Source: an uncultured Chloroflexia bacterium (GTDB lineage: Bacteria; Chloroflexota; Limnocylindria; Limnocylindrales; CSP1-4). Taken from it: a stretch of DNA of 64,000 bases. Within the stretch, counting starts at the first letter, position 1; each line of letters opens with the position of its first letter. The notes under the pieces are model-generated. The model ran no database searches, was not told the DNA's origin, and saw nothing but the letters and a program-made list of their open reading frames with translations. Shown here piece after piece: positions 11,119 through 48,802 of the stretch. The translations under genes were made by a program, and so were the position numbers. The stretch is taken from positions 222,739-286,738 of the forward strand of contig CAWIML010000009.1 in NCBI GenBank assembly GCA_963837215.1, given 5' to 3'.

Positions 11119-11119
11119 G

Positions 11120-12139
11120 TCAGCGACCGACGCTCGCCGTGACGGACGCCACGATCCTATCGACGGAGGGCAGGACCTCGTCTTCCAGGGGAGGCGTGTA
11201 AGGGATGGGTAGGTCGTCTGGCAGGCTGAGCCGTCGAGGAGCGCTGGCCCATTCGATGCCGCCGATGGTCAGTTCACTGACGATCGTCGCACCCCAGCCC
11301 GCTGCGTGGACCTGCTCCTCCACGACGACCAGGCGACCGGTCTTTTCGACCGACGCCCGCACGGTCGGCAGATCCAGTGGACGCAGCCAGCGCACATCGA
11401 TGACCTCGGCATCGATGCCGTCCTGGGCGAGCCGCTCGGCCGCTGCCAGGGCACGCTCGACCATCAACAAGGTGGCGACGATGGTGACGTCGCGGCCCTG
11501 CCGGAGTACCGCCGCCTTGCCGACTTCGGCGACCTCGCCACGGGTCACTGACCCCTTGCGGCCATACAGCCCCTTGTGCTCGTAGAAGATCGTCGGGTTC
11601 GAGGCGGCGATCGCCGTCCGGAGCAGTGCGTACGCGCTGGCGGGCGAGCTGGCCGTCACGACACGGAGTCCCGGCAGGTGCATGAACCAGCTCTCGCCGG
11701 TCGCGCTGTGCTGGGTCCCGAAACGGCCGGTGGCGCCGCAGATGGCACGGACGGTGACCGGCACAGCGGTCTGACCGCCAGACATGTAACGGTACTTGGG
11801 CAGCTGGTTGACGATGGCGTCGCCGGCGGTCGGCAGGAAGTCGGCGAACATGATCTCGACCACGGGACGCATGCCGACCAGGCTCATGCCGAGGGCCACG
11901 CCGAGGAACCCGTTCTCACAGATGGGGGTGTTCCTGATCCGCTCGGGCCCGTACTTCTCGGTCAGACCGACATTCGTCTTGAAGACGCCTCCGTCCGCGC
12001 CGACGTCTTCGCCCATCAGCAGAACGGTGGGATCGGACGCCATGGCATCGTCGAGCGCGGCGTTGATCGCCTCGCGATAGGTCAACTCGGTCGTGCCGCT
12101 ACCTCCGCCGGCCGGCGCGGCCTCAGTCAGCGTAGACAT
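11120..12139 (-). CDS. 2-oxoacid (pyruvate/acetoin-type) dehydrogenase E1 component, beta subunit
   Basis: LLMGEDVGADGGVFKTNVGLTEKYGPERIRNTPICENGFLG is the classic E1-beta N-terminus. ATG at 12139 overlaps the E1-alpha stop by 17 nt. Confidence 0.9.
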   Translation of the reverse strand: MSTLTEAAPAGGGSGTTELTYREAINAALDDAMASDPTVLLMGEDVGADGGVFKTNVGLTEKYGPERIRNTPICENGFLGVALGMSLVGMRPVVEIMFADFLPTAGDAIVNQLPKYRYMSGGQTAVPVTVRAICGATGRFGTQHSATGESWFMHLPGLRVVTASSPASAYALLRTAIAASNPTIFYEHKGLYGRKGSVTRGEVAEVGKAAVLRQGRDVTIVATLLMVERALAAAERLAQDGIDAEVIDVRWLRPLDLPTVRASVEKTGRLVVVEEQVHAAGWGATIVSELTIGGIEWASAPRRLSLPDDLPIPYTPPLEDEVLPSVDRIVASVTASVGR

Positions 12140-13088
12140 ACGGACGAGTCTCCTCGAGGGTCGGGTATGGGGCGGCTGCCGCGCGTTCGGCGGCAGCATC
12201 GATGTCAGCCTGGGTCTCGGTCCGCACCTCGACGTGGTCGTTGGGGCCCATCAGGCCGTCCGCCACGAGCACCTTGGCGAGCAGCTCGATCGGGTCTCGG
12301 GCCATCCACCGATCCAACTCACCTGCCGGGCGGTACTTCGCCGGATCGCTTCGGCTGTGGCCGCGATAGCGGTACGTCTTCATCTCGAGGAGCGTCGGCC
12401 CGCCGCCGCCGCGGGCGCGCTCCACCGCGACCGTCGTCGCCTCGTGGACGGCACCGACGTCCTGGCCGTCGACGATGATGCCCGGGAAGCCATATGGGTC
12501 CGCCCGGCGTGCGAGGTCATCGAGCGGGGTCGTCGCCCGCAGTGCGCTGTACTCGCCGTACAGGTTGTTGGTGATGATGAAGACGACGGGCGCATTCCAG
12601 ATGGCGGCCATGTTCATGGCTTCGTGGAACGTCCCGATGTTGGTGGCGCCGTCGCCGAAGAACGTGAGGGCGACGTTCGGCTTGCGCTGCATCTGGAAGG
12701 CGACCGCCGCCCCGACGGCGATCGGCAGGCCCGCGCCGACGATCGCGTTGGCTCCGATGTTGCCCTTGCTGAAATCGATGAGGTGCATCGAGCCGCCAAC
12801 ACCGCCCGAGCCGCCGGTCCGGCGACCCATCAGCTCCGCAAAGGCGGTCTCGGGCTCCATCCCAAGCGCCAGGGCCTCGCCATGGCCGCGATAGGTGTTG
12901 GTCTGGACGTCGCCTGGCCGCATGGCAGCGATGGCTCCCACGGATACGGCCTCCTGGCCCTGGCAGAGGTGCGTGGTGCCCTGGATCTGCCCGGACATGA
13001 ACAGCTCCTGGACCTTCTCCTCGAAGATCCGGATGCGGACCATGGTGTGGTACCAACCGAGCCGATCGGGCGGTGCGCTGGCGGTCAT
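12123..13088 (-). CDS. 2-oxoacid dehydrogenase E1 component, alpha subunit (TPP-dependent)
   Basis: 321 aa from ATG 13088. TPP motif GDGATNIGTFHEAMNMAAIWNAPVVFIITNN (GDG..NN). The upstream 194 codons of the track ORF look non-coding. Confidence 0.9.
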   Translation of the reverse strand: MTASAPPDRLGWYHTMVRIRIFEEKVQELFMSGQIQGTTHLCQGQEAVSVGAIAAMRPGDVQTNTYRGHGEALALGMEPETAFAELMGRRTGGSGGVGGSMHLIDFSKGNIGANAIVGAGLPIAVGAAVAFQMQRKPNVALTFFGDGATNIGTFHEAMNMAAIWNAPVVFIITNNLYGEYSALRATTPLDDLARRADPYGFPGIIVDGQDVGAVHEATTVAVERARGGGGPTLLEMKTYRYRGHSRSDPAKYRPAGELDRWMARDPIELLAKVLVADGLMGPNDHVEVRTETQADIDAAAERAAAAPYPTLEETRPYVYAD

Positions 13089-13153
13089 GGATCGTCGAGC
13101 CTCCGGAGTCGAGCCGCGTGGGACGAGGTAAAGCGGCCGGTGTCGCAGCCGAG

Positions 13154-13169
13154 CGGTACCGTTTCCAGT
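13154..13169. promoter_or_regulatory. LacI-type operator-like site CGGTACCGTTTCCAGT
   Basis: Lies between divergent E1-alpha (start 13088) and the LacI gene. It sits inside a 27-nt block (13150..13176) that matches 1424..1450 with one mismatch. Confidence 0.55.
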
Positions 13170-13260
13170 TTCGATTACACATCGTTGCATCCGATCCACC
13201 GTATCGTCAACCGTGGGCCCCGATTCCGCCCGCAACGGAACGGCCGCGGATAGACCGTGT

Positions 13261-13290
13261 GCTATCGTTCCTGCAACCGTTACTGGAACG
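13261..13290. promoter_or_regulatory. Operator-like sites directly upstream of the LacI gene (candidate autoregulation)
   Basis: Sequence GCTATCGTTCCTGCAACCGTTACTGGAACG contains the inverted repeat CGTTCC-N13-GGAACG and a copy of the CGTTACTGGAA element also seen at 7696..7706. It lies 24-53 nt upstream of ATG 13314. Confidence 0.45.
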
Positions 13291-13313
13291 ACAGCTGGCA
13301 CACGGAGGTGCGC

Positions 13314-14357
13314 ATGACCGAGCCGAGGCGGCAGGAAGGCCGCCGCAAGCGGGCGAGCATGCGTGAGGTCGCCGATCTTGCGGACGTGGCTATCTCCTCG
13401 GTCTCGCGCGTGCTGTCGGGACATCCAGATGTGAGCGCCGGGATGCGCGATCGGGTCTCGGCTGCCGTCGAGGAGCTCGAGTATGAGCCGGACTTCCTGG
13501 CCCAGAGCCTGCGTCGGGGCGCGACCCTGTCGGTCGGCTATGTCGTCGGCGACATCTCCAACCCGCTGATCGCTACGATCACATCCGGGGCCGAGTCGGT
13601 CCTGCGATCCGCCGGCTACTCGATGCTGCTCATGAACTCGGAGGGAGATCCCGAGTTGGACGCGGCGCACATCCGCTTCTTCCAGGCTCGGCGGGTCGAC
13701 GGCATGATCCTGTCACTGGCGAGCGAGCGGCGGCAGGCCACCCTTGACGGGCTCGCCCAGGTCGATGTCCCGATCATCATGATCGACCGCGACGTTCCAG
13801 CCGACCTCCGCGCCAGCATCGTTCGCAACGATCATCGCGCGGGGATGCGCGAGGGCGTCGGCCACCTGCTCGACCTCGGCCACCGCCGTATCGCCCTGAT
13901 CACGGGTGCTCTCGATCTGTGGCCGGTTCGCGAACGCATCGCCGGCATGGCAGAAGCGGTCACCGCCCGGGGCCTGCCAGACGAGACGATCAGCCTCGTC
14001 GGCTCACTCTCGGCGGAGCACGGCGAGCGCAGCACGGAACAACTCCTCGCCATGCATCCGCGCCCGACGGCGATCGTGGCAGGCGGCAACCAGGTCCTGG
14101 CAGGTTGCGTGCGCGCGATCGTGCGCCATGGCGTGCGCGTGCCGGACGACATGTCTCTCATCACCTGCGACGAGGTCGACCTGTCCGAGCTCTATTCCCC
14201 GCCCATCGCCTCGATCGCGCGCGACACGCTGCTGCTTGGACGGACCGCGGCCGAACTGCTGCTCGAACGCCTCAACGACGGCGAGCCGCGCACGGTGCTG
14301 TTGCCCACGAGCTTCACGGCGCGACCGAGCTGTGGCCCGGTCCCTGCGGAGGGCTAG
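13314..14357 (+). CDS. LacI-family transcriptional regulator
   Basis: N-terminal HTH MREVADLADVAISSVSRVLSG followed by a periplasmic-binding-fold effector domain. GGAGG RBS 5 nt upstream of ATG 13314. It is the only regulator gene in the window. Confidence 0.9.
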   Translation: MTEPRRQEGRRKRASMREVADLADVAISSVSRVLSGHPDVSAGMRDRVSAAVEELEYEPDFLAQSLRRGATLSVGYVVGDISNPLIATITSGAESVLRSAGYSMLLMNSEGDPELDAAHIRFFQARRVDGMILSLASERRQATLDGLAQVDVPIIMIDRDVPADLRASIVRNDHRAGMREGVGHLLDLGHRRIALITGALDLWPVRERIAGMAEAVTARGLPDETISLVGSLSAEHGERSTEQLLAMHPRPTAIVAGGNQVLAGCVRAIVRHGVRVPDDMSLITCDEVDLSELYSPPIASIARDTLLLGRTAAELLLERLNDGEPRTVLLPTSFTARPSCGPVPAEG

Positions 14358-14474
14358 GAGGGCGCACGCGGTCAGTACGGGCTGACCGCCAGTCCGCCGG
14401 TGGCCGGTCAGCGTCCTTGAGGCTGGCCGCGATCCGCGTGAGGTGGTCGGGCAGCGTTCCCGGGCCTGCGCACG

Positions 14475-14501
14475 TGGTAACGTTTGCAGAACCGCTACCA
14501 G
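14475..14501. promoter_or_regulatory. Two overlapping LacI-type operator-like sites (TGGTAACGTTTGCAGA / GCAGAACCGCTACCAG)
   Basis: About 75-100 nt upstream of the corrinoid-activase gene. TGGTAACGTTTGCA is a near-palindrome with a central CG. It is nearly the reverse complement of the site at 36372..36388. Confidence 0.55.
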
Positions 14502-14574
14502 CGAGCGAGGGTCCGCCGGCCGATGCTGCGCGTCCCTTGACGACCGCTCGCGCGGCGCGACACAGGAGTCCCGC

Positions 14575-16185
14575 GTGCCAGACGTCATCCACGGGGTCGA
14601 CCGCCGTCCACTGATCGCCGGCCGGACGTTGTTCGACTACGCGGATGAGGTATCGGCCGCGGTGCCAGCCTCGTGTCGACGGACCGGGCGCTGCAGGGAA
14701 TGCGTCGTCGAGGTTCGCCAGGGCGGCGCCGGGCTGTCGCCGCGGACCGAACCCGAGGGGTACCTGCGAGGGCAGTTCCGGCTGGCCTGCCAGGCGCGCA
14801 TCGAGGACGCGGGCAGCGACGTGGAGTTCTCCATCATCCGTCGCCGGCTGCGGATCCTGGGCCCCGTGGACCGGCCCATCGGTCGCGTGGATCCGGTCGT
14901 CACGGCGGACGATCGAACGGTGTACTACGCCGGCCAGCCGATCGGCCTGCGTCGCCCGCGCGTGCTGGGATTGGCTATCGATGTCGGCACCACGACGGTG
15001 GTCTTCCAGGTCATCGACCTGTTGACAGGCGTTGCCATCGCTGGCGGCGCGCTGGAGAACCCGCAGCGCTTCGGCGGCAGCGATGTGATGACCCGGATCT
15101 CGTACGAGAAGGACTTCCCGGGCGCCATGCGACTGGCTCTTCGTCGAGCGCTCAATCACGAGCTTCGCGACCTCTACCAGGCGCAGGGCATCGATCGGCA
15201 CGAGGTCTATGAAGCGATGGTCGTCGCCAACAGCACCATGCGCGACCTGTTCTTCGGGATCGACATCTCGCCCATCGGCGAGTTCCCGTACAAGTCGCTG
15301 ACTGAGGTTGCCATGCTGGCCGGTGGGGCCTCCTCCACCTGGCTGCGACGGCGCGGGCACGAGGTCGGGCTGCTGATGAACCCGCATGGTCGGGTGGTCG
15401 GAGCGCCCTTGATCGCCAGTCACGTCGGCGCGGATACGGCCGCCGATCTGATCGCCGTCGACTTCGCCGCCGGCACGGGCGTGCGGATGCTCGTCGACAT
15501 CGGCACCAACACCGAAGTCGTCGTCACCGATGGAACGCGCTACCTTGCCGCGTCCTGTCCAGCCGGGCCCGCCTTCGAAGGCGGCCTCATCAGGTTCGGC
15601 ATGGCTGGTGCGGACGGGGCCATCGAGTCGGTCCGACTGGACCGCGACCGGTTCTCGTTCGGGACGATCGGCCACGTCGAGCCGGTCGGCATCTGTGGAT
15701 CCGGCCTCGTCGACATCCTCGCCGAGCTCCGCCGGGCGGGCTGGATGAACACCGAAGGGCGCTTCGCTGACGGGGTCGATGAATACCTCGTTGCGCCGGG
15801 CCAGGGGATCAGCTTTTCGCGATCGGATGCCAGCCTGCTCGCCCAGGCCAAGGCCGCGAACGCATGCGGACAGCGCATCCTGCTGCGACGTCTGGGAGTC
15901 ACGGCCGATCAGATCGATCGGGTCTACCTGGCCGGAGGATTCGCGAACGCGGTGAGCGTGGTGAATGCCATCGAGATCGGGCTCCTGGCGCCGGTCCAGG
16001 TGAACCGGGTCGATCGGGTCGGCAACGCCGCACTTCAGGGGGCGGTCGCGTTGCTCCTCTCAGCCAGCCGTCGCGACGAGCTCGAAGCGCTGGTCGGCCG
16101 GATCGAACATGTCGAGCTTGAGACCGAAGAGGACTTCTTCGAGCTGTTCGTCGACGGCTGTCGGTTCATCCCCATCGCCGCCTGA
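14575..16185 (+). CDS. Corrinoid reductive activase (RACo-like): N-terminal [2Fe-2S] ferredoxin domain fused to an ASKHA ATPase domain
   Basis: GTG 14575 with AGGAG 7 nt upstream. Plant-type ferredoxin Cys pattern CRRTGRCREC...LACQ. ASKHA blocks LAIDVGTTT, MLVDIGTNTE, GICGSG and YLAGGF. Confidence 0.8.
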   Translation: MPDVIHGVDRRPLIAGRTLFDYADEVSAAVPASCRRTGRCRECVVEVRQGGAGLSPRTEPEGYLRGQFRLACQARIEDAGSDVEFSIIRRRLRILGPVDRPIGRVDPVVTADDRTVYYAGQPIGLRRPRVLGLAIDVGTTTVVFQVIDLLTGVAIAGGALENPQRFGGSDVMTRISYEKDFPGAMRLALRRALNHELRDLYQAQGIDRHEVYEAMVVANSTMRDLFFGIDISPIGEFPYKSLTEVAMLAGGASSTWLRRRGHEVGLLMNPHGRVVGAPLIASHVGADTAADLIAVDFAAGTGVRMLVDIGTNTEVVVTDGTRYLAASCPAGPAFEGGLIRFGMAGADGAIESVRLDRDRFSFGTIGHVEPVGICGSGLVDILAELRRAGWMNTEGRFADGVDEYLVAPGQGISFSRSDASLLAQAKAANACGQRILLRRLGVTADQIDRVYLAGGFANAVSVVNAIEIGLLAPVQVNRVDRVGNAALQGAVALLLSASRRDELEALVGRIEHVELETEEDFFELFVDGCRFIPIAA

Positions 16186-16217
16186 GCGAGGGCTCCCACG
16201 CACGGAGGGATCAACCG

Positions 16218-17294
16218 TTGTCAGGGTCTGGAGTCGCACCGTCGTTCATCGTCATCGGCGAGAACATCCATACCAGCCGAGTCGTCCGACGCGATGGCCC
16301 ACGCATCGCTGCGTCCGCATCCGGGGCGCCGATGATCCGCGTGCCGATGGGCGCTGGCGACGCCTTGCTGCCTGTTCCGCCGGCCGTCCAGGCGACGCGC
16401 GAGTTCGCCGCCGGGCGAGTGAAGCACGTGATGGTGGCCGTCCTTGAAGGGATGTCCAACGGCCCGGATGCAGACATCGCGGCGACCTACGTCCGCTGGA
16501 TGGCGACCCGCCAGATCGCTGGCGGCGCCGCCTACCTGGATCTCAACGTGGACGAGATATCCCCGGACGTCGACGGGCGCCTGCGTGCCATGGCCTGGTT
16601 GGTCGGCGTCGTGGGCCCGGTCACGACGGTCCCGCTGTCGATCGACTCTTCGGACTCGGCGGTCATGACGCTCGGTCTCGACCTGCTCGACCCTGGCTGG
16701 GCGCTCGGCGCGCCACCGCTGCTGAATTCGGCGGCGGCTGATCGTGTCGACGTGCTCGGCATGGCCGCAGAGCGAGGCTGCCCGGTCGTCCTGTCGTCGA
16801 CTGGAGCGACCATGCCCAGCGGGACGGAAGAGCGCATGGTCCGGGCCATCGAGATGATCGAGATGGGGCTCGGCCACGGCTTGCCTCTTTCAGACATGCA
16901 CGTTGACCCGTTGGTCATCCCGATCGGCGTCGACGCCGAGGCGGGAACGGCGTACCTCGAGGCCGTGCGGCAGCTTCGGCATCGCTTCGGGCCCGAACTG
17001 CACATCACGGGCGGCGTCTCCAACATCTCCTTCGGGATGCCGGCCAGGCGCCTGATCAGCGACGTCTTCCTCGACCTCTGCGTACAGGCCGGCCAGGACA
17101 GCGGCATCGTCGACCCGGTCGCCGCGGATGTCGCCCGCGCGCTCGCGCCCGACCGTGCCTCCGAGACCTACCGCCTGGCAGCGGACCTGCTGACCGGCGT
17201 CGATGCCTTCGGGGTGGAGTACCTCGAGGCCTTCCGGTCCGGTCGCCTGTCGGGACCGGAACCGGGGGCGGCCCGCACGATGGCGTCGTCGTAG
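16218..17294 (+). CDS. Pterin-binding (MtrH/AcsE/MetH-like) methyltetrahydrofolate:corrinoid methyltransferase-like protein
   Basis: TTG start with GGAGGG 7 nt upstream. IVIGENIHTS, YLDLNVDE, PLSIDSS, LLNS and GGVSNISFG blocks match dihydropteroate-synthase-like pterin-binding barrels. Confidence 0.7.
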   Translation: MSGSGVAPSFIVIGENIHTSRVVRRDGPRIAASASGAPMIRVPMGAGDALLPVPPAVQATREFAAGRVKHVMVAVLEGMSNGPDADIAATYVRWMATRQIAGGAAYLDLNVDEISPDVDGRLRAMAWLVGVVGPVTTVPLSIDSSDSAVMTLGLDLLDPGWALGAPPLLNSAAADRVDVLGMAAERGCPVVLSSTGATMPSGTEERMVRAIEMIEMGLGHGLPLSDMHVDPLVIPIGVDAEAGTAYLEAVRQLRHRFGPELHITGGVSNISFGMPARRLISDVFLDLCVQAGQDSGIVDPVAADVARALAPDRASETYRLAADLLTGVDAFGVEYLEAFRSGRLSGPEPGAARTMASS

Positions 17295-18016
17295 CTCATC
17301 TCGAGCCGTTCGCCGGGGCGCAGGATCTGGAAGTCGTCGTCCCACTCGCCGAACAAGAGCTTCCGGACCAGTCTCAGGTCCGCGAGGGTCCGCTCGAACC
17401 GCCAGCCTCGACGTTCAGATTCCTCCCTGGCGCGCTGCTCGGCGGCCTCGGACGGCGCAAGCCCGGTGTCGATGAAGGCACCTCGCTCGTACCTGGCGCT
17501 CCACTCACCGAGGACCTCCATGAGGTACGCCGCGTTGTCCTCGCCGAAGCGTTCCGTGTACTCCGCCCGGGTCGACTGCACGTCCTCCGCACGAGCGGCA
17601 TCGCCCAGGAGCCAACCCTTCAGGTCGTTGCCCCTGTCCATCTGGTCCTGGACGTACCAGTAGGTGCCAGGCGTCGCCTCGTGCTCCTTCCGGTACCGGG
17701 CGCGATCTCCCAGGAAGATGGTCACGCAATCGTGGGCTCGGGCCAGGACGATGGGAGCCGACCGGGCGATCAGGCCAGCCGTGGCTCCGCCGCACAGGCC
17801 ATAGGCGAGGACCACCGCGTCGATCTCCGGACCGGCCTTGTCCACCTCGATCTGGATCCGTTCACGGAGCGTGGCGGGCTCGGCATGCAGCGCGGCGCTG
17901 AGCTGGACCACGTCCACCGCATGTGGCGAGCTGGCGGCGAAGAAGTGGACGGGGCGCAGCAGGATGTCGCAGGAGATCGCCAGCAGATGCAGACCTGACG
18001 CCTGGCTCGGGTCCAT
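17168..18016 (-). CDS. DUF1638-domain protein (commonly next to corrinoid methyltransferase genes)
   Basis: 282-aa ORF immediately downstream of the B12-binding protein gene. Assigned from memory of DUF1638-like sequence (AVVLAYGLCGG...). Its 3' end overlaps the convergent gene by 127 nt. Confidence 0.6.
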   Translation of the reverse strand: MDPSQASGLHLLAISCDILLRPVHFFAASSPHAVDVVQLSAALHAEPATLRERIQIEVDKAGPEIDAVVLAYGLCGGATAGLIARSAPIVLARAHDCVTIFLGDRARYRKEHEATPGTYWYVQDQMDRGNDLKGWLLGDAARAEDVQSTRAEYTERFGEDNAAYLMEVLGEWSARYERGAFIDTGLAPSEAAEQRAREESERRGWRFERTLADLRLVRKLLFGEWDDDFQILRPGERLEMSYDDAIVRAAPGSGPDRRPDRKASRYSTPKASTPVSRSAARR

Positions 18017-18029
18017 GACCAGCCTGCGG

Positions 18030-18710
18030 TCAGCTGGCAGCCGCGGCGCTGGCAGCGCCGGTCTTGCTCGCGGCGCGAGCCTCGGCGACCAGGCGCCGGG
18101 CGAGGATGACGGCGGATGCGGCGTCCGGCGCCCATCCGTCAGCGCCGATCTGCTCGGCGAACTCCTTGGTCACGGCCGCGCCACCGACCATGACCTTGAG
18201 GTCGGGCAGGTCATCTGCGGCGCGGACCGCCTCGATGACGACGCGCATGCCGCCCATCGTCGTCGTCAACAGCGCGCTGATCCCGATGATGTCCGCCTTG
18301 TGCTCGCGTGCAGCGGCCATGAACCGATCCACCGACACGTTCGTGCCAAGGTCGAAGATCTCGAAGTTGGCACCCTTCAGCATCATGCCGACCAGGTTCT
18401 TTCCGATGTCGTGCAGGTCGCCCTTGATCGTGCCCATGACGGCGATGCTGTCAGGTTTGTAGCCAGACCCGATCAGGAGCGGCTCGAGGAGCGCCACGGC
18501 GGCCTTCATGGCACGCGCGCTGATGAGCATCTCCGGGACGTAGATCTCGTTGTCCTGGAAGCGCTGTCCGACGACACCCATGGCATCGGTCATCGCATCC
18601 AGCACCGTCTTCGGGGGGATCTCCTCGTCGATCGCCTGCTGGGTGACCTCGACCGCGGTCTCGCGGTCGCCGACCTCGACGGCCGTCTGGAGTCGTTTGA
18701 GATCCGCCAT
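18030..18710 (-). CDS. Corrinoid (B12-binding) methyl-carrier protein (MtaC/MtbC/MttC-like)
   Basis: N-terminal B12-cap helix bundle, then DxHxxG (GDLHDIGKN), SxL (GISALLTTT) and GG (VMVGGAAV) cobalamin-binding motifs. Confidence 0.9.
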   Translation of the reverse strand: MADLKRLQTAVEVGDRETAVEVTQQAIDEEIPPKTVLDAMTDAMGVVGQRFQDNEIYVPEMLISARAMKAAVALLEPLLIGSGYKPDSIAVMGTIKGDLHDIGKNLVGMMLKGANFEIFDLGTNVSVDRFMAAAREHKADIIGISALLTTTMGGMRVVIEAVRAADDLPDLKVMVGGAAVTKEFAEQIGADGWAPDAASAVILARRLVAEARAASKTGAASAAAAS

Positions 18711-18743
18711 GCTCCGTTGGTCTCCTGTAGCTCGGGGGCGAGT

Positions 18744-19844
18744 TCAGCCGGGAAAGGTGCTCGTGGACGGGTCAGGTCGCACCACGAAGGCACCCTCGCC
18801 ACGGCGCAGCTTCGACCAATCGCGCGCTGCGGCAGCGATGGCCATCAGGGGCTCCTTCTTGGTGACCAGGGGCACGGATCCCTCCGGCGCCAGGCCGTCC
18901 ACACCCTGGTCCAGCAGGTCCCAGCAGGTTCGGTAGACGTCCTCGGCCGTGCCCTGGTACAGCAGGGTGGGGTTGTTGAGGTTGCCCATCAAGGCCATCC
19001 GCTCGCCGGCCGCCGCGCGAGCCTCGCGGGCGTCGACCTGGGACTCGAAGTGGAAGACATCCCAGCCAGCGGCCGCGAAGAGATGGACCCTGTCGATGGT
19101 CTTGCCGCAGCAGTGGAAGATGCCCGGCCCGCCCATCTCCTGGGTGACGCGCTGATGCATCTCGAGCAGGAAGTCCCGGTAGGTCTCGGCGCGACAGAGG
19201 TCCCCGGTCGTGTGATCGGCCCACATGATGGCGTCGGCGCCGGCCTCGAACTGGGCTCGAGCCGACGCGATGCATGGGACCACGAAGGCGTCCAGGTAGC
19301 GCTTGATCTTGTCAGGGTCGAGCATCACGTCCATCAGGAAGCTCTCGATGCCGACCATCTGATACCCGACCGACCATGGGCCATAGACCTTGCCCACGAT
19401 GGCGACGTCCGGATAGCGCTGACGCAACAGTCTGATCGCCCCCGTCACGGCGGCCATCGTCGGGCGCTCGACGAAGTCGTCCGGCATCTTGACCTGCTCC
19501 GGCTCCTCGATCGTGAACCGCGACGGCGACGGCCAGTTGTCCTTCTCGGCCCACTCCGTTTCGCCGCCCAGGGCGTCCGACTCGAGCTGCGAATGGAAGA
19601 CCGGCATGATGGTGTCCATGTCGAACACGTCGTGAGCTGTCGCAGCGAGTCGGGCCATGAGCTCGGCGTCGAGGTGCGCTTCGGGGAATGGCGCCCCGAC
19701 CAGGTCCATCATCTCGACCGTCACGACCGAACTCAGTGTGCAGGCCGGGACCCGGTCGACATGTCCACGATAGATCGCCGACAGGAAGCGCCGGCGAGGG
19801 GTCATCCACTCTCCCTTGAGTGGGTGCGTGACTTCAGCGATCAT
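18744..19844 (-). CDS. Uroporphyrinogen-decarboxylase (UroD/MtaA) family methyltransferase
   Basis: 366 aa from ATG 19844, with AAGGAG 9 nt upstream. UroD-family barrel with an FHCCG motif (the His-x-Cys position of MtaA-type enzymes). The track ORF extension to 20189 is antisense to the dehydrogenase gene. Confidence 0.75.
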   Translation of the reverse strand: MIAEVTHPLKGEWMTPRRRFLSAIYRGHVDRVPACTLSSVVTVEMMDLVGAPFPEAHLDAELMARLAATAHDVFDMDTIMPVFHSQLESDALGGETEWAEKDNWPSPSRFTIEEPEQVKMPDDFVERPTMAAVTGAIRLLRQRYPDVAIVGKVYGPWSVGYQMVGIESFLMDVMLDPDKIKRYLDAFVVPCIASARAQFEAGADAIMWADHTTGDLCRAETYRDFLLEMHQRVTQEMGGPGIFHCCGKTIDRVHLFAAAGWDVFHFESQVDAREARAAAGERMALMGNLNNPTLLYQGTAEDVYRTCWDLLDQGVDGLAPEGSVPLVTKKEPLMAIAAAARDWSKLRRGEGAFVVRPDPSTSTFPG

Positions 19845-19878
19845 CTGCGACGACTCCTTGGCATCGATCGTGTGGTCG

Positions 19879-20949
19879 TCAGGCCGGGGTCTTGACCCGC
19901 TCGGCCGCGCCGCTCGACGCGCTCCGGTAGGCAGCCTCAAGGATCTCGACCGTGCGTGCGCCGAGCTCCGCTGGCGAGTTGTTGTCGAATGGGCGGCCGG
20001 CGCCCGCGGCCACCAACGCGTCGATGGGACCGGTGCAGTCATAGAGTCCCGCGTCCGACTCGAGCGGCACCCGGACATCGTCGTCCGCTGAGCGATAGCG
20101 CCACAGGACGTTGTCGCGCAGGTCCAGGTGGAACATGCCCCTGGAACCGACGACGCGGACCTCGACGGCATGTCGATTGTTCGCGCCACCGAGGTGGCTG
20201 GAGGCGCCGCTCATGGTGCCGATGGCGCCATTCGTATAACGGATGGCGACCGCATCGTGGAGCTCCACCTTGGCGTCCATCGGGGCCGACATGAAGGCGA
20301 AGACATCCTGCCCCCGCAGGTCGGTGAGCCAGAGCGAGACGCCGAGGAGGTGCGTGAGCTGGGCCTGACCATAGCCGCCGCCGGAGGTCTCGGGCCGTGA
20401 CCAGGTGTCCGGCTGCGGGACGTATTCGGGTGCCGCGTCCGGATATGCCCCGGTCTCGGACAGGAGCTCACGCGTCACCGAGTCCATGTGCAGCGCGACA
20501 TGCTCGATCTCGCCGATCCCCCCATCCTCGTGCATCATCGAGTGGGCCTGGATGACCATCGGCCGATAGTTCCAGCCGTACGCCAGGATCAGGTTGTTGC
20601 CGGTTCGACGAGTCGTCGCGTCGAGGTCCCATGCGTGGGCCGGGTCGATCGTGAACGGCTTCTCGCACATCACCTGTGCACCGGCCTCCAGGGCGGCCTT
20701 GCTCTGTTCCCAGTGATAGCCCGGCGGGCTCCCGACGACCACGATGTCCGGCTTCTCGGCGATCACGTCGCGCCAGTCGGTCGAGGCCTTGGCGAATCCG
20801 AAGTCCCGCTGGATCTTCGTCAGCAGCTCCGGATTGCGTCGATTGATGATCGTGAACTCGACGTCGTCCCGGTGTTTGACGAGGTTCGGCAGGTGTGAGC
20901 TGACTGTCCACGAGCCCGCTCCGATGACGCCGAGGCGCAGCTTCGCCAC
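19879..20949 (-). CDS. Gfo/Idh/MocA-family NAD(P)-dependent sugar/cyclitol dehydrogenase
   Basis: LRLGVIGAGSW Rossmann N-terminus, EKPF motif and SGGGYGQAQLTH block. GTG start with AAGGAG. First gene of the operon that continues into the UroD-family MT. Confidence 0.85.
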   Translation of the reverse strand: MAKLRLGVIGAGSWTVSSHLPNLVKHRDDVEFTIINRRNPELLTKIQRDFGFAKASTDWRDVIAEKPDIVVVGSPPGYHWEQSKAALEAGAQVMCEKPFTIDPAHAWDLDATTRRTGNNLILAYGWNYRPMVIQAHSMMHEDGGIGEIEHVALHMDSVTRELLSETGAYPDAAPEYVPQPDTWSRPETSGGGYGQAQLTHLLGVSLWLTDLRGQDVFAFMSAPMDAKVELHDAVAIRYTNGAIGTMSGASSHLGGANNRHAVEVRVVGSRGMFHLDLRDNVLWRYRSADDDVRVPLESDAGLYDCTGPIDALVAAGAGRPFDNNSPAELGARTVEILEAAYRSASSGAAERVKTPA

Positions 20950-20993: not shown

Positions 20994-21048
20994 TTGACGC
21001 GGTGGAACGACGACGACTACAGTTGCCACCGGGTGGAAACGACTCTGG
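20994..21048 (+). promoter_or_regulatory. Candidate sigma-70-type promoter (TTGACG-18 nt-TACAGT) followed by operator-like TGGAAACGACTCTGG
   Basis: -35 at 20994..20999, -10 at 21018..21023, operator-like site at 21034..21048. Located in the 259-nt divergent region between 19879..20949 (-) and 21209..22348 (+). Confidence 0.4.
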
Positions 21049-21208: not shown

Positions 21209-22348
21209 GTGAGCAAGGTCCAGACCGTCGAGGCGATCCCGGTCAGCTACCCGGAGCCCAACGACTACAACGCCCTCCGCCACCTGTGCCTGGTCAAGAT
21301 CACGACCGACGACGGTGTCGTCGGCTGGGGCGAGTCGATCACCCAGTTCCCGGAGGCGAATTTCGCGGTCAAGGCCATCATCCAAGGCATGGCTGAGCGG
21401 GTCATCGGCAAGGACCCGCTCGACAACATCGCCGTCTGGCATGCCCTGCGCGACCAGATGTGGTGGTACGGCTACAACGGCGGCATCGCAAGCTACGCCG
21501 TGGCGGCGATCGACATCGCCCTCTGGGATATCAAGGGCAAGCTATTGGGCGTCCCGGTCGTCCAGTTGCTGGGCGGGGCGGTCCACGAAAAGCTGCCGGC
21601 GGTCGCCTCGAGCCACGCCCACTACGAGGACATCGGCCGGATGGTGGAGGAGGCTCAGGAGTGGGTCGCGCCTGGGATGCACGGCCTCAAGGTCGGCCTC
21701 GGCAAGCGCGGCAACGCCCGGCTCGGCTATGAGCACGACCGCGATGTCGAATACATGCGCCGGATGCGCGAGGGGCTGCCCGGCAAGTGGATCATGCTGG
21801 ACTGCGGCTGGAACGTGAAATGGGACGTCATGACGGCCATCCGGCGGGTCCAGGCATTCGATGAATACGACCTGCACTGGATCGAGGAGCCGTTGGGCGC
21901 CTGGGATCCAGAGGGCTACGCGAACCTGCGCAGCAAGACCACCAGCCTCATGGCCTATGGCGAGAAGGAGTGGAACGTCGACGGGTTCGAGCGCGTGCTG
22001 TCGACCGGTACGGTCGACGTGGTCGGCATCGACCCTGGACGGGCCGAGGGCATCACCGGGTTCAAGCGCGCCGTCGAGCGCATCGAGTTCTACCGACGTC
22101 AGGCCAACGCGCACTGTTGGTCGTCGGCGATCGTGACCGCGGCCAGCCTGGCGATGAGCTTCAGCTCACCGGCCTTCAAGCTCATCGAAGTCAAGCCGCT
22201 CCGGAATCCGATGCAGCACGAGCTGGTACCGGAGCCGATCGAACACATCGACGGTTGGTTCTATCCGCCGACCAAGCCGGGCCTCGGGATCGAGGTCATC
22301 CAGGAGGTCGTCGACCGCTATCGCAGCGAGAAGGTACTGGGCGCCTGA
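21209..22348 (+). CDS. Enolase-superfamily dehydratase-like protein (second subtype)
   Basis: GTG 21209 with AAAGGAG upstream. VGWGES, ALWDIKGK, KVGLG, WIEEP and GEKEW blocks. Paralog of 37649..38776. Confidence 0.85.
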   Translation: MSKVQTVEAIPVSYPEPNDYNALRHLCLVKITTDDGVVGWGESITQFPEANFAVKAIIQGMAERVIGKDPLDNIAVWHALRDQMWWYGYNGGIASYAVAAIDIALWDIKGKLLGVPVVQLLGGAVHEKLPAVASSHAHYEDIGRMVEEAQEWVAPGMHGLKVGLGKRGNARLGYEHDRDVEYMRRMREGLPGKWIMLDCGWNVKWDVMTAIRRVQAFDEYDLHWIEEPLGAWDPEGYANLRSKTTSLMAYGEKEWNVDGFERVLSTGTVDVVGIDPGRAEGITGFKRAVERIEFYRRQANAHCWSSAIVTAASLAMSFSSPAFKLIEVKPLRNPMQHELVPEPIEHIDGWFYPPTKPGLGIEVIQEVVDRYRSEKVLGA

Positions 22349-22374
22349 GCCATCAGCGTCGGAGGAGGCACGAG

Positions 22375-23142
22375 ATGACATGGAGCGTCGGCGCCGGACT
22401 CGAGGGTCGCGGCGTCATCCTGACGGGGGCCACCGGGGGCATCGGCGTTGCCGTCGCACGCGGCTTCGCGGCGACCGGCGCGAGGATCATGGCCGTCGAC
22501 CTTGACCAGGCTCGCCTGGACGAGCTGGTCGGCTCGTTGGAAGGTTCGGGCCATGTCGGCGTCGTCGCCGATCTGCGCGACATGTCGACCCACACGCCAC
22601 TGGTCGCGCGAGCCATCGCGGAGCTCGGCGGCGTCTACGTCCTGGCGAACCTGGCCGCCGTGCTCAGGCGTCGTGGGTCGCTGAACGAGGTTTCGGAGGA
22701 CGACTGGGATTTCCAGCACGACATCAACCTGAAGTCCGCATTCTTTCTGTCGCGAGCAGCGGGCAACGCGATGATCGAGGCCGGCGATGGCGGGCGGATC
22801 GTCCTGTTCAGCTCGCAGGGCTGGTGGACCGGCGGTTTCGGCGGGTCCGTGGCGTATGCCTCGTCCAAGGGCGGCGTGACCACGCTCTGTCGTGGGCTCG
22901 CGCGGACCTTCGGCCCGTACCAGATCACGGTCAACTGCATCTCACCTGGACAGGTCAACACCCCGATGCTCATGACCGGCCTTGCGCCCGAGGTCTACGA
23001 AGCCATGAAGAAGCAGACACCGCTCGGGTATGTGGCCGAGCCCGAGGAGATGGCCGGGCCCGTCGTGTTCCTCGCCTCCGATCATGCGAAGTACATCACC
23101 GGCGCGACGATCAACGTGTCGGGCGGCTTCCTGATGTATTAG
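22375..23142 (+). CDS. SDR-family oxidoreductase
   Basis: ATG 22375 after GGAGGAGG. TGATGGIG and YASSK motifs. Confidence 0.85.
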   Translation: MTWSVGAGLEGRGVILTGATGGIGVAVARGFAATGARIMAVDLDQARLDELVGSLEGSGHVGVVADLRDMSTHTPLVARAIAELGGVYVLANLAAVLRRRGSLNEVSEDDWDFQHDINLKSAFFLSRAAGNAMIEAGDGGRIVLFSSQGWWTGGFGGSVAYASSKGGVTTLCRGLARTFGPYQITVNCISPGQVNTPMLMTGLAPEVYEAMKKQTPLGYVAEPEEMAGPVVFLASDHAKYITGATINVSGGFLMY

Positions 23143-24176
23143 TGACTGCGACGATGCGGGCCGTCGAGTTGCCCGGTGCCGGCCAGCCGCTGCGCCTCGC
23201 CGAGCGCCCGATCCCGCATCCGGGTCCGGGTGAGGTCCGTGTCCGGGTCGAGGCCTGCGGGGTCTGTGGCTCGGACGTCTTTCTCCAGAACGGCGGCTTT
23301 GGCGCGGCGGTCTCGTGGCCCGTCATCCCGGGCCACGAGGCGGCCGGCGTGGTGCACGCCATCGGCGACGGCGTGGCTGGGATCATGCCGGGTGCCCAGG
23401 TCGCGCTCTACTACATCACGACACCGCCGGACGATCCATGGACCGCGCGCGGCCGACCCAACATCAGCCCACAGGTCAAGCGGATGGGGGTGGACGTCGA
23501 TGGCGCATTCGCCGAGTACGTGATCCGGCCGGTGGCAGCCATCATCCAGCCGCCGGCGGTGATACCGCCGCCGGTGCTCGCCGTCCTGACGGACGCGGTC
23601 GCAACGCCGCTCCACGGACTCAAACGCGTGGCCAAGCTCCAGCCAGGCGAGACGCTGGTCGTCCTGGGCGTCGGGGGCCTGGGCTCCAACGCTGTCCAGA
23701 TCGGGAAGGCGATCGGCGCCCGGGTCATCGCCGTCACGCGCTCGCCCGCCAAGCTGCTCCTGGCCCGCCGGCTCGGGGCGGACGAAACGGTCGCGGCGGA
23801 CGATGGCGATCCAGTCGCCGCCGTCAAGGCCCTGACTGGTGGCTACGGGCCGGACGTGGTGATCCAGTGCGTCGGATCGGCTGTCGTCGATGAACAGGCC
23901 ATCGCCATGGGCGGACCGGGCGGTCGGGTCGTGCTGATCGGGTCGAGCCTTGACCAGTTCCGGGCCCGCGCCGTGGACATCTTCTGGCGCGAGCTCTCGG
24001 TCCTCGGGTCACGCGGTTTCGTGCCGGAGGACATCCGTGATGCCATCGACCTCTACCTTGCCGGCACGCTCACGGTCGATCATCTGGTCGAGTCGATCCG
24101 GCCGCTCGAGGAAGCGAACGAGGCGCTCGAGGACCTTCGCGCCGGGCGTGTTCTGCGGAGCGTGCTCGTGCCGTGA
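23142..24176 (+). CDS. Zinc-type alcohol dehydrogenase (MDR family)
   Basis: ACGVCGSD, PGHEAAG and GVGGLG motifs. GTG 23142 overlaps the upstream TAG; the ATG at 23154 is an alternative start. Confidence 0.85.
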   Translation: MTATMRAVELPGAGQPLRLAERPIPHPGPGEVRVRVEACGVCGSDVFLQNGGFGAAVSWPVIPGHEAAGVVHAIGDGVAGIMPGAQVALYYITTPPDDPWTARGRPNISPQVKRMGVDVDGAFAEYVIRPVAAIIQPPAVIPPPVLAVLTDAVATPLHGLKRVAKLQPGETLVVLGVGGLGSNAVQIGKAIGARVIAVTRSPAKLLLARRLGADETVAADDGDPVAAVKALTGGYGPDVVIQCVGSAVVDEQAIAMGGPGGRVVLIGSSLDQFRARAVDIFWRELSVLGSRGFVPEDIRDAIDLYLAGTLTVDHLVESIRPLEEANEALEDLRAGRVLRSVLVP

Positions 24177-24198: not shown

Positions 24199-25305
24199 TC
24201 ACGCCGATGAGGACGGCAGCACGCGCGTCAATCGCTCGGCGCTATCGCGGAGGTTCGCCAGGATCGAGGGCACGCGCGAGGGATCTTCGCGACCCCAGCC
24301 GCAGTAGGACGCGATCCCGAAATCGGACAAGTACTGGTTCGCGGCTCGGGCCCGCCGCTCGAAGGCATCGAGTCCGTCATCGAGGACGATCCCGAGATAC
24401 GGCCGAGTGCTTCCGATCGCGAGTGCCTGCATCGGTGCGAAGAAGGCATCATCGGCGTTCGGCATCACCGGCATGTGAACGTAGTCGACGCGACGTCCGG
24501 CTCGGATGACCGCCTCGTTCGCGAGACGAACGCAGACGGTCATGTCGGGCGCGTCCGACTTCGGCCAGCCGCCCCAGGTTCCGAAGCAGAAGTGGTAGCC
24601 GAGGACGACGTCCTCGGGGATGTCGCCTGAGAGCTGGTTCATGTCGCCGAGATGGCGTTGCCACTTCTCCTCGAGCGAGGTCTGTGGTGACCACGGCAGG
24701 AGGGGTTTGTCGCCCGCGAGGATGTCGCGAACCTCGCTCGCGATATCCCACTGGATGACGAGGTCCTCGTGTGGGATCGCGGCGACGATCTGCGACACCT
24801 CAGCCCGGATCGCACGCCGGTACGCGTCGTAGACGACCGGCCAGTCCTCCGGTCGCGCGAAGAAGCCCATGACCGCCGAGCCGGTGGCGGGCAGGCAGAC
24901 CTGGAACCTGGACCCGGCGGGGATGTCCCCGGCAGCGCGAAGGCGCCGAAAGATCTCGAACGATCGGGTCGCCTCTTCAGCGTAGTGAAGGCTGTCGAAG
25001 GTCAGCTGCGTGACGCCCGGCCGAAGCTTGAAGGTCCACCATGATTCATTCCACTCCTTCTGGCTGGCATCACGTGTAGGCTGTCGAACCTGCCCGTCAG
25101 CGGGCGCATTGACGGCTTCGAGATCCGGGTGCACCGAGTACGTTCGGGTGGGGAGGTAGAAGGTCCAATACTTGCGCTGGCCCACCTCGCCGTCCGGATA
25201 GGAGGAGACGAGCGAGCCGAGCCCGCCAGCGCAGACACGAAGCACGTCTTCGACGCTGTCGAGCGGAACACTGCCCACCAGGTGCACGACGCCCATTCGG
25301 CTCAC
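24199..25305 (-). CDS. Uncharacterised protein, possibly a MetE/UroD-like TIM barrel (HxC ... C pattern)
   Basis: 368-aa ORF. GYHFCFG and, 97 residues later, ASYCGWG resemble the Zn-ligand spacing of the cobalamin-independent methionine synthase C-terminal domain. This is a weak, memory-based call. Confidence 0.4.
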   Translation of the reverse strand: MSRMGVVHLVGSVPLDSVEDVLRVCAGGLGSLVSSYPDGEVGQRKYWTFYLPTRTYSVHPDLEAVNAPADGQVRQPTRDASQKEWNESWWTFKLRPGVTQLTFDSLHYAEEATRSFEIFRRLRAAGDIPAGSRFQVCLPATGSAVMGFFARPEDWPVVYDAYRRAIRAEVSQIVAAIPHEDLVIQWDIASEVRDILAGDKPLLPWSPQTSLEEKWQRHLGDMNQLSGDIPEDVVLGYHFCFGTWGGWPKSDAPDMTVCVRLANEAVIRAGRRVDYVHMPVMPNADDAFFAPMQALAIGSTRPYLGIVLDDGLDAFERRARAANQYLSDFGIASYCGWGREDPSRVPSILANLRDSAERLTRVLPSSSA

Positions 25306-34756: not shown

Positions 34757-34757
34757 C

Positions 34758-47057: not shown

Positions 47058-47058
47058 C

Positions 47059-47940: not shown

Positions 47941-47971
47941 CTCGACTCCTCACCGGCTCGCCGTGATGGCC

Positions 47972-48003: not shown

Positions 48004-48044
48004 CCAAGGCATGCAACCGGCTCGGCCGACGGAGGAGAACGCCG

Positions 48045-48755: not shown

Positions 48756-48802
48756 CAGAGGAGTGCCAGTGGCCGAGCCGGAGCGGGACATCGGTCGATC
48801 CG

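Follow-up and report, generated by a model that had tools for sequence, protein, structure and literature searches.

What would a cobalamin-dependent methyl-transfer system be doing among genes for sugar catabolism? The question is raised by a 64,000-nucleotide stretch of DNA from an uncultured Chloroflexia bacterium (contig CAWIML010000009.1; hereafter the window), in which positions 14575-20949 encode a reductive activase, a pterin-binding methyltransferase, a DUF1638 protein, a corrinoid protein, a UroD-fold methyltransferase and a Gfo/Idh/MocA dehydrogenase. Our leading interpretation, held with slightly less than even confidence, is that this module is a LacI-controlled, cobalamin-dependent three-component methyl-transfer system, together with its repair factors, that works within an oxidative sugar or sugar-acid pathway.

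All module components are present and intact. The activase (14575-16185, +) is of the ATP-dependent RACo type, with 2Fe-2S, middle and ASKHA domains all above the Pfam cut-offs (Fer2, Raco_middle and RACo_C_ter, 216 bits) and the plant-type 2Fe-2S cysteines Cys33, Cys39, Cys42 and Cys72; the NCBIfam AcsV and RamA models score below their cut-offs. Its long open reading frame (ORF) spans 14443-16185, the likeliest start being a GTG at 14575 behind AGGAG. On the same strand follows the candidate for methyltransferase II (MTII; 16218-17294, +), which carries Pfam Pterin_bind (PF00809, 61 bits against a cut-off of 25.5, residues 96-299) and whose true start is perhaps further downstream. The NCBIfam model for methyl-tetrahydrofolate (methyl-THF):corrinoid methyltransferases, PRK07535, gives it 164 bits against a cut-off of 259, which makes it a family member with no equivalog. 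On the opposite strand, the Gfo/Idh/MocA NAD(P) dehydrogenase (19879-20949, -; Pfam GFO_IDH_MocA) is the first gene of a unit that continues with the methyltransferase I candidate (MTI; 18744-19844, -), an MtaA/CmuA-like UroD-fold protein (Pfam URO-D, 187 bits). The URO-D ORF is over-extended; translation really begins with the ATG at 19844, behind AAGGAG, which gives a protein of 366 amino acids. Then come the corrinoid carrier (18030-18710, -; Pfam B12-binding_2, PF02607, and B12-binding, PF02310) and DUF1638 (17168-18016, -; 118 bits). The corrinoid protein reads DLHDIG, SAL and GG in translation, the complete DxHxxG...SxL...GG signature, and its NCBIfam matches of the MtgC, pyl_corrinoid and MtbC types are all below cut-off.

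Same-strand gaps within this unit are 34 nucleotides between the dehydrogenase and MTI, 33 between MTI and the corrinoid protein, and 13 between the corrinoid protein and DUF1638; a consensus scan found no terminator-like hairpin on the minus strand in any of them. The Gfo-MTI unit is probably co-transcribed. The adjacency described in the first-pass annotation of this DNA is therefore real, with the gap corrected from 35 to 34 nucleotides, and its claim that every component of a corrinoid system is present was borne out by Pfam matches for all six genes. All six also have the high-GC coding signature (GC3, the G+C content at third codon positions, of 0.83-0.88) in a window of 68% G+C, where real genes are recognisable by a GC3 above 0.8 and a GC2 of about 0.5. 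Together the domain and motif assignments support a complete corrinoid methyl-transfer system of MTI, corrinoid protein, MTII and activase.

DUF1638 is the most variable part of this set. The window's proteins were mapped by tblastn onto 84 loci and all ORFs were clustered; DUF1638 is found in just 5 of the 34 Chloroflexota loci. Since most close relatives are without it, the corrinoid protein there abutting the pterin gene, DUF1638 appears to have been inserted or lost recently. In the window the DUF1638 and pterin methyltransferase ORFs are convergent and overlap by 127 nucleotides (17168-17294). DUF1638 has been tied genetically to a RamA-like activase and to corrinoid reactivation as an accessory factor, and aerobic bacteria are known to have modular corrinoid methyltransferase systems that use RamA together with DUF1638 (PMC5764234, PMC12478193).

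The module is embedded physically, and probably transcriptionally, in LacI-controlled sugar catabolism. Directly upstream of the activase is a LacI-family regulator gene (13257-14357, +; Pfam LacI helix-turn-helix and Peripla_BP_1/3), which remains adjacent to RACo in syntenic Limnocylindria loci and whose product is likely to be the repressor of the activase/MTII operon. A predicted LacI-type palindromic operator, TGGTAACGTTTGCA, occupies 14475-14488, about 87 nucleotides upstream of the RACo GTG. It matches the pattern TGNNAACGTTNNCA exactly, and the window holds five matches to this pattern at no more than one mismatch against 0.43 expected. The half-site TGGAAACG is about tenfold enriched, with 10 copies in the window against 1.07 expected, and about eight of the ten lie in or beside the starts of sugar operons: those at 1434 (CoA-transferase/MR-MLE), 7671 (ABC binding protein), 13160 (E1 alpha/LacI), 14475 and 21034 (Gfo/MR-MLE), and three further promoter-type sites at 47989, 60615 and 61048. 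The other copies are at 4118, inside an ABC ATPase gene, and at 35793, in a stretch with ambiguous gene calls. Sites 1434 and 13160 have a near-identical stretch of about 20 nucleotides in common (TGGAAACGGTACCGCTCG plus flanks) and are therefore probably bound by one regulator. Both transcription units of the module had been placed behind a shared LacI-type operator. The site at 14475-14488 is indeed a perfect palindrome, whereas that in the divergent Gfo/MR-MLE promoter region (21034-21041, +) fits the half-site only, which does not prove that the two units form one regulon. The sole sigma-70-like promoter match in this divergent region is at 20994-21023 (+).

Pfam scans identify the 64-kb window as an island of oxidative, non-phosphorylative sugar catabolism. 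It contains four CUT2 ATP-binding cassette (ABC) systems, four MR/MLE dehydratases, three Gfo/Idh/MocA dehydrogenases, many short-chain dehydrogenases/reductases (SDRs) and lactonases of the SMP-30, PTE and amidohydrolase-2 types, as well as a pair of 2-oxoacid dehydrogenase E1 alpha and beta subunits with a matching E2 at 61044-62102. The window genes that were scanned include no MttB-type, aromatic-ring or iol gene, which agrees with the first-pass statement on the first two. Equivalog-level NCBIfam assignments that name a sugar were likewise absent for the transporters, dehydrogenases, E1 subunits, CoA-transferase and lactonase.

Which methyltransferase branch does MTI belong to? Its placement rests on PDB and NCBIfam searches and on published trees. 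The best PDB match is MtaA of M. mazei (4ay7; E 9e-45, 30% identity over 329 residues), and the solved relatives found by sequence are MtaA and true uroporphyrinogen decarboxylases (HemE-type) alone; the PDB search gave no sequence match to an aryl O-demethylase or CdmB chain, and NCBIfam likewise returned no O-demethylase-type match. The MtaA/MtbA/CmuA models are the top NCBIfam matches, and MTI falls just outside the curated MtaA/CmuA family (TIGR01463, 227.4 bits against a cut-off of 235.4; PRK06252, 233.9 against 244; MtaA_Meth, 206 against 400; MtbA, 158 against 600). Published trees split a branch resembling the soluble coenzyme M (CoM) methyltransferases from OdmB/VdmB, at about 17% identity (PMC10418091; also PMC13222342). 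By these comparisons MTI is of the MtaA/MtsA/CmuA-like branch and not of the OdmB/MtvB branch.

This placement bears on the most familiar explanation for such a module, an ordinary O-demethylase of aryl methyl ethers (lignin-derived methoxy-aromatics) that lies among sugar genes by chance. The combination of MTI, corrinoid protein, pterin MTII and RACo is the exact O-demethylase architecture (PMC13222342, PMC13391211), and methoxy-aromatics are abundant in soil. The aryl O-demethylases OdmABCD/VdmB of Acetobacterium dehalogenans, MtvABC of Moorella and MtoABCD of Methermicoccus follow the same four-part logic, with a UroD-fold MTI, a corrinoid protein, an MTII that methylates a C1 carrier and an ATP-dependent RACo-type activase; the ether is cleaved by Co(I) attack, and some of the MTIs contain zinc. 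The module studied here differs from them in its MtaA/CmuA-like MTI (30% identical to MtaA), its probably aerobic host, the presence of DUF1638, and a setting of LacI-controlled sugar and sugar-acid operons in place of an acetogenic Wood-Ljungdahl context and aromatic genes. Aryl O-demethylases as closest characterised homologues would have spoken against a carbohydrate donor, as the first-pass annotation pointed out; the closest is MtaA. With MtaA-type relatives in PDB and NCBIfam, a branch that published trees keep apart from OdmB/VdmB at about 17% identity (PMC10418091), no aromatic-ring catabolic genes in 64 kb and a sugar/sugar-acid association that recurs across phyla (see below), we consider an aryl donor improbable.

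A halomethane donor (CH3Cl or CH3Br), handled by an unfused relative of CmuA/CmuB, is less probable still and would surprise us greatly. An NCBIfam MtaA/CmuA subfamily model is among the top matches (227 bits), CmuAB is the classic aerobic pair of UroD-type MTI and pterin MTII, and haloalkane MTIs arose several times within the UroD superfamily (PMC13222342). The chloromethane systems CmuA/CmuB (aerobic) and CdmBCA (Acetobacterium) likewise combine a UroD-type MTI, a corrinoid module and a pterin MTII that passes the methyl group to tetrahydrofolate (THF). Unlike the module here, CmuA is a fused MTI-corrinoid protein, and CdmB has no zinc and clusters with the O-demethylases; the two systems also differ from it in that it has no adjoining C1-oxidation genes and is set in sugar catabolism. 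Known cmu clusters carry metF, folD and purU, none of which lies alongside the module, and the MtaA/CmuA score is below the family cut-off. LacI control, a co-operonic dehydrogenase and, in relatives, permease and kinase partners would make no sense for a gas.

Nor does the module match the type-1 mlp clusters (Kountz and Balskus 2023), which also combine MtaA-like UroD proteins with a corrinoid protein and an activase of the Ram/RACE type in non-methanogens. Those clusters have two to three Mlps and no THF methyltransferase, are confined to strict anaerobes and have a proposed methyl-S/Se role. In contrast, the window has a single MtaA-like gene, with a remote MetE-fold gene nearby, rather than an Mlp2 and Mlp3 pair, together with a pterin methyltransferase; the hosts are Chloroflexota and Acidimicrobiia, and a P450 lies in the island.

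Alignment of MTI with MtaA locates a change in the metal site. The His-x-Cys zinc ligands are kept (FHCCG in MTI, LHICG in MtaA), whereas the third zinc-ligand Cys (MtaA APGCG) is Gly in MTI (APEGS), leaving the His-x-Cys...Cys set incomplete. All intact orthologues from Chloroflexota and Acidimicrobiia show the same Cys-to-Gly change, the one exception being a frameshifted copy (in locus L028) that reads LGPDGR. Firmicutes and other distant relatives have HICG and retain the third Cys (APECA). Because the third Cys is Gly clade-wide while distant relatives keep it, the window clade appears to have a remodelled metal site, for which His244, Cys246 and probably Glu321/Glu267 are the candidate ligands. 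The methanogen enzymes MtaA, MtbA and MtsA (4ay7) are the closest characterised sequences and share the fold, the His-x-Cys with its following Glu, and a corrinoid partner of the same type. MTI differs from them in the Gly at the third position, in an extra Cys beside the His and in its pairing with a pterin (THF) methyltransferase. CoM synthesis is not known from bacteria of this kind.

Homologues occur at 83-93% identity in metagenome-assembled genomes (MAGs) of soil Chloroflexota (Limnocylindria-type), at 60-64% in sponge-associated Acidimicrobiia (Spongiisociaceae), and at 46-51% in Desulfosporosinus, Thermoanaerobacterium and Negativicutes. Gfo, methyltransferase and corrinoid protein follow in order in 20 of the 34 Chloroflexota loci, all of them with orthologues of at least 85% identity. 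In four rearranged loci (L084, L083, L022 and L024), where Gfo no longer directly adjoins it, the methyltransferase lies beside genes for CoA-transferase III, MR/MLE, E1 beta, E1 alpha, LacI and Gfo, and in two others (L010 and L011) beside a CUT2 sugar ABC system. The genes of these rearranged loci flank the window module at 101-2661 and 9937-13202. They correspond to a CoA-transferase family III gene (101-1384, -) and its divergent MR/MLE partner MR1 (about 1500-2661, +), both of which adjoin the methyltransferase in L084, L083, L022 and L024, and to a second MR/MLE dehydratase, MR2, with 2-oxoacid dehydrogenase E1 beta and E1 alpha (9937-13202, -; all Pfam assignments), the set most persistently linked with the methyltransferase in those same loci. 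The NCBIfam pyruvate dehydrogenase E1 alpha and beta models match the E1 subunits below cut-off. Gfo orthologues (65-70% identity) adjoin LacI in L083 and L084, and in L084 LacI and Gfo are direct neighbours, so the module looks as if it was inserted between them. In L083 (contig_29605, a long-read MAG) the E1 beta, CoA-transferase and B12-binding genes are split into fragments, which are probably assembly frameshift errors rather than pseudogenes.

The 37 Acidimicrobiia loci have a compact operon in the order methyltransferase, corrinoid protein, small Cys-rich ORF (in some), RACo and pterin enzyme; the corrinoid protein is present in 36, RACo in 33 and the pterin enzyme in 30. In 10 of the 37 the operon comes right after an isomerase-like gene (weak AraA_C), an unknown gene, a Zn-dependent alcohol dehydrogenase (Zn-ADH), a PTE lactonase and an SDR, and by tblastn synteny this Zn-ADH is 50-53% identical to that of the window (23150-24176, +, start approximate; Pfam ADH_N and ADH_zinc_N). 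Two kinds of Cys-rich protein were also seen in Acidimicrobiia, in loci that fall under L030-L066: a small Pfam-less ORF (about 96-113 amino acids) between corrinoid protein and RACo in 14 of the 37 loci (for example L081, 12008-12298), and a 375-amino-acid Pfam-less protein with CGSG and CLYCAHC motifs beside Zn-ADH in nine.

In three Firmicutes loci (L068, 6333-13904; L088, 3835-9417; L089, 2979-8677) a relative 46-50% identical to MTI is encoded together with a corrinoid protein, a CdaR-type sugar-diacid regulator and a permease of either the major facilitator superfamily or the GntP type. Two of these loci (L068 and L089) add glycerate kinase. A further, distantly related UroD protein (about 20% identical) is encoded in L068 and L088, and a pterin methyltransferase in L068. 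This gene content suggests import of an acid, its demethylation and then glycerate phosphorylation, that is, a corrinoid-dependent demethylation yielding glycerate. The link to sugars or sugar acids is thus supported, at the level of gene neighbourhoods, in rearranged Chloroflexota, in part of the sponge Acidimicrobiia and in the related Firmicutes clade.

Some of the other Acidimicrobiia loci would fit a different donor. Methyl flow could run in the same direction, from donor to cobalt to THF, with the methyl group coming from sulfur, and the enzyme would then resemble MtsA or MtpA of methanogens in its action. Candidate donors are dimethylsulfide, methanethiol, methylmercaptopropionate and methylthio-sugars or methylthio-acids. 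MTI lies in the soluble-CoM-methyltransferase-like branch (MtaA at 30%, MtaA/MtbA/CmuA as top models), the His-x-Cys part of a thiol-binding zinc site is retained, and the related type-1 mlp clusters have been proposed to serve methyl-sulfur or methyl-selenium metabolism (PMC10418091). Fifteen Acidimicrobiia loci carry genes for an M24/creatinase-like protein, a luciferase-like monooxygenase with flavin reductase, and an acyl-CoA ligase, hydratase and dehydrogenase; this set and six loci with a rhodanese-like gene are compatible with organosulfur or dimethylsulfoniopropionate-type metabolism. However, NCBIfam gave no decisive assignment for the M24/acyl-CoA context (for example DddP-type), the M24 protein matching no model at all; the window has no sulfur-metabolism gene; and the window clade is exactly the one that has lost the third Cys, a ligand characteristic of zinc sites that handle thiolates. 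An S-methyl donor would also leave LacI control and the sugar-operon embedding unexplained, and the pairing of the isomerase-like gene with either this module or a P450 (below) suits O-demethylation better. We regard this donor class as unlikely, though well ahead of aryl ethers.

Which sugar would be involved? The window contains two RhaM mutarotases (29334-29654 and 34758-35150), and in one relative (L087) a 71% homologue of the window protein at 24199-25305 lies in a cluster with a GH106 alpha-L-rhamnosidase, in the order GH106, this homologue, Zn-ADH, SDR, isomerase-like, LacI, MR/MLE, E1 alpha/beta and RhaM. Because of the two RhaM genes, the GH106 in the relative and the absence of iol genes, the conserved catabolic set looks related to a 6-deoxyhexose (rhamnose or fucose) rather than to a cyclitol. 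A cyclitol was rejected as leading candidate: besides the missing iol genes, Gfo has weak, Rossmann-limited similarity to IolG and scyllo-inositol dehydrogenase, to levoglucosan dehydrogenase (LgdA) and to DgpA, and its score with the IolG model is 57 bits against a cut-off of 355, which does not indicate an inositol or methyl-inositol cluster. The earlier proposal of an O-methylated sugar or cyclitol as methyl donor therefore keeps its sugar half, as a suggestion from the recurrent sugar/sugar-acid context, and loses its cyclitol half to RhaM and GH106.

An apparent operon 11 kb from the corrinoid module provides a circumstantial pointer to O-demethylation. It spans 32029-35150 on the minus strand and encodes a mutarotase resembling RhaM (about 34758-35150), an isomerase-like protein without a Pfam match (33318-34646) and a cytochrome P450 (32029-33321); the genes for the last two overlap by 4 nucleotides. 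In Acidimicrobiia, the gene ahead of the corrinoid module has a product that shares 50-53% identity with this isomerase-like protein. Depending on the lineage, the same pathway gene thus has either a corrinoid system or a P450 as its partner; this supports an O-demethylation step circumstantially, and P450s are known methoxy-sugar demethylases (PMC6292453, PMC10033563). The 32029-35150 operon may be an oxidative, O2-dependent counterpart of the B12 system. The window P450 itself resembles generic actinobacterial P450s in PDB, with no specific relation to the sugar-demethylating CYP236 established. A CYP236-type P450 acting on 6-O-methyl-D-galactose has the same role that we propose here, unblocking a methoxy sugar for catabolism; it depends on O2 and releases formaldehyde, whereas a corrinoid route would save the methyl group as methyl-THF without O2. 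The presence of a P450 in this island also makes an aerobic host probable.

The analysis shows which domains are encoded, how the genes are ordered and closely spaced, where the operator lies and which neighbourhoods recur across phyla. The direction of methyl flow is deduced solely from the catabolic setting, and the donor class, the metal ligands and co-transcription are likewise deductions. In the sequence of events that we propose, MTI (18744-19844) would bind a methylated carbohydrate-derived compound, the likeliest donors being an O-methylated 6-deoxyhexose of the rhamnose or fucose type, its aldonate or a dehydrated derivative. The C-O bond would be polarised by the metal site (His244, Cys246 and probably Glu321/Glu267), and the methyl group would be taken by Co(I) of the corrinoid protein (18030-18710) and handed by MTII (16218-17294) to tetrahydrofolate, giving methyl-THF. 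RACo (14575-16185), with DUF1638, would rescue oxidised Co(II) at the expense of ATP and an electron, a repair that matters because the host is probably aerobic. The demethylated sugar would then pass to the Gfo/Idh/MocA, SDR and Zn-ADH dehydrogenases, the lactonase and the MR/MLE dehydratases, and from there to the E1/E2 complex and the CoA-transferase.

Several observations weigh against this interpretation. The MTI protein itself carries no substrate information; an O-methyl sugar is our suggested donor, and an S-methyl donor or reversed flow is possible. Known MtaA/MtsA/CmuA-like members act on thiols, thioethers and halomethanes, not on alkyl ethers. Aliphatic alkoxides also leave poorly, and for them no such enzyme is known. 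Firmicutes relatives with the full MtaA-type zinc site may differ in substrate from the window clade. Comparison of homologue neighbourhoods, which upheld the recurrent sugar link, confined direct Gfo adjacency to close relatives: outside the orthologues of at least 85% identity the Gfo gene is 6-8 kb off or absent, and inherited recent synteny alone could explain the arrangement. In a window packed with sugar genes some adjacency is expected by chance, and some Chloroflexota methyltransferase copies are orphans (that of L082, for example). Among the 37 Acidimicrobiia loci, 15 have non-sugar neighbours (M24/creatinase-like, acyl-CoA and flavin-monooxygenase genes) and six lie beside the rhodanese-like gene, with a further six in other contexts. 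The operator half-site fits several paralogous LacI-type regulators, from which a single regulon is not demonstrable. Finally, the window has no genes for methyl-THF oxidation (MetF, FolD, PurU).

What would be new if a sugar ether is the donor? Methyl ethers of sugars (methyl-rhamnose, methyl-fucose, methyl-galactose and 4-O-methyl-glucuronate) block ordinary sugar catabolism. In the literature searched, the sole described route and the only enzymatic solution to this block is the O2-dependent cytochrome P450 oxidation of one marine sugar, 6-O-methyl-galactose. In keeping with the first-pass annotation, the literature searched held no description of corrinoid-dependent demethylation of methyl sugars, pinitol, methyl-uronate or cyclitols, and for corrinoids with methoxyacetate it held incidental mentions only. 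The architecture of the module is of an already known kind; the new features are an MtaA-like clade with a remodelled metal site, probably aerobic hosts, the embedding in sugar and sugar-acid genes across phyla, and the substrate class that this implies. A B12 route would make aliphatic ethers a new substrate class for corrinoid methyltransferases, would offer an oxygen-independent, carbon-conserving methyl fate (methyl-THF rather than formaldehyde), and would give a function to a widespread, uncharacterised MtaA-like clade that occurs both in sponge symbionts and in the Limnocylindria, abundant Chloroflexota of soil. Even with an S-methyl donor, the altered metal site and aerobic hosts make the clade worth characterising.

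We can word this more boldly, and with correspondingly greater doubt: the module may encode the first O-demethylase that uses cobalamin to cleave methyl ethers of an aliphatic (carbohydrate) kind. The MtaA-like enzyme, its metal site remodelled, would strip the methyl group from an O-methylated 6-deoxyhexose or its aldonate. As a speculative refinement, demethylation might take place only once an MR/MLE dehydratase or Gfo has made a methyl enol ether from a 2-O-methyl sugar or aldonate; the enolate of such an ether would leave as readily as a phenolate. The methyl group would be kept as methyl-THF, not burnt to formaldehyde as in the P450 route, and the enzyme would operate in aerobic soil Chloroflexota and sponge Acidimicrobiia. 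In anaerobic Firmicutes, the relative with the intact MtaA-type zinc site (46-50% identical) would feed a small demethylated hydroxy-acid to glycerate kinase.

A further protein of the cluster raises the question of a second methyl-transfer partner. The product of 24199-25305 (-) has no Pfam, NCBIfam or PDB match at the sequence level, PF01717 and a profile search of PDB sequences included. Its AF2 model (pLDDT 92.8) is a TIM barrel, and the top Foldseek matches are MetE structures (1xpg, 3rpd and 1ypx; E 2e-8 to 1e-7, TMq about 0.6), followed by UroD and MtaA. We are confident that the predicted fold is MetE-like (cobalamin-independent methionine synthase/UroD superfamily). His238, Cys240 and Cys335 form an invariant His-x-Cys...Cys set. 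The family has more than 350 homologues. In L028 the gene lies directly between those for the corrinoid protein and the pterin methyltransferase, and distant MetE-fold homologues occur in unrelated contexts. Going by the modelled fold, the protein may be a second alkyl-transfer enzyme that uses the same corrinoid protein. It was also compared with a Pfam-less protein beside Zn-ADH in Acidimicrobiia (c23); the two are not homologous.

The methyl group might also flow the other way, as in a split methionine synthase: from methyl-THF to the corrinoid protein and on to a thiol (homocysteine) or another acceptor, the final methylation being carried out by the MtaA-like enzyme, by the MetE-fold protein or by both. 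MtaA itself is a methyl-corrinoid:thiol methyltransferase, and the MetE-fold protein has its invariant His-x-Cys...Cys and its place directly after the corrinoid protein in L028. Aerobes are known with a split MetH that has separate pterin and B12 modules, a RamA-like activase and DUF1638, and in which demethylation and methionine synthesis use one corrinoid protein (PMC5764234, PMC12478193). The Roseobacter network (MtgB/MtgC/MtgA with split MetH, RamA and DUF1638) resembles the module in being aerobic and in its separate corrinoid protein, pterin module, RamA-like activase and DUF1638; its donor side is MttB-family (glycine betaine) and its acceptor a homocysteine S-methyltransferase domain, whereas the donor-side candidate here is UroD-fold. 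A biosynthetic methylase would be odd under a LacI-type repressor among catabolic sugar operons, there is no homocysteine-binding (PF02574) module, the UroD enzyme is without the third Cys ligand, and the permease and glycerate kinase of the Firmicutes relatives follow a catabolic logic. Reversed flow is accordingly a poor candidate, about as improbable to us as an aryl donor.

Returning to the sugar pathway that we favour as the setting, the genes divergent from Gfo begin with a third MR/MLE-superfamily acid-sugar dehydratase, MR3 (21209-22348, +; Pfam MR_MLE_N/C), which has a GTG start behind AAAGGAG and whose best NCBIfam match, galactonate dehydratase, is below cut-off. An SDR dehydrogenase follows (22354-23142, +; Pfam adh_short_C2, 178 bits); its NCBIfam matches include glucose 1-dehydrogenase and the L-rhamnose 1-dehydrogenase Lra1, all below cut-off.

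Two observations concern the island as a whole. The E2 component consists of two neighbouring ORFs split by a stop codon, with the lipoyl domain at 61044-61355 and the catalytic domain at 61356-62102 (+). An operator, TGGAAACGCTTGCA, precedes them, and the matching E1 alpha/beta genes (11120-13202, -) are 50 kb off, beside an MR/MLE dehydratase; the operator of this E1 operon is also that of the CoA-transferase III gene (101-1384). The layout of E1, E2 and CoA-transferase suggests that 2-keto-3-deoxy sugar acids are oxidatively decarboxylated by an unusual route. At 46131-49846, two PTE-family (phosphotriesterase-like) lactonases flank an AP_endonuc_2 protein (a xylose-isomerase-like TIM barrel) and an SDR; with an operator, TGGAAACGTCACCA, at 47989, this is another uncharacterised sugar-lactone module.

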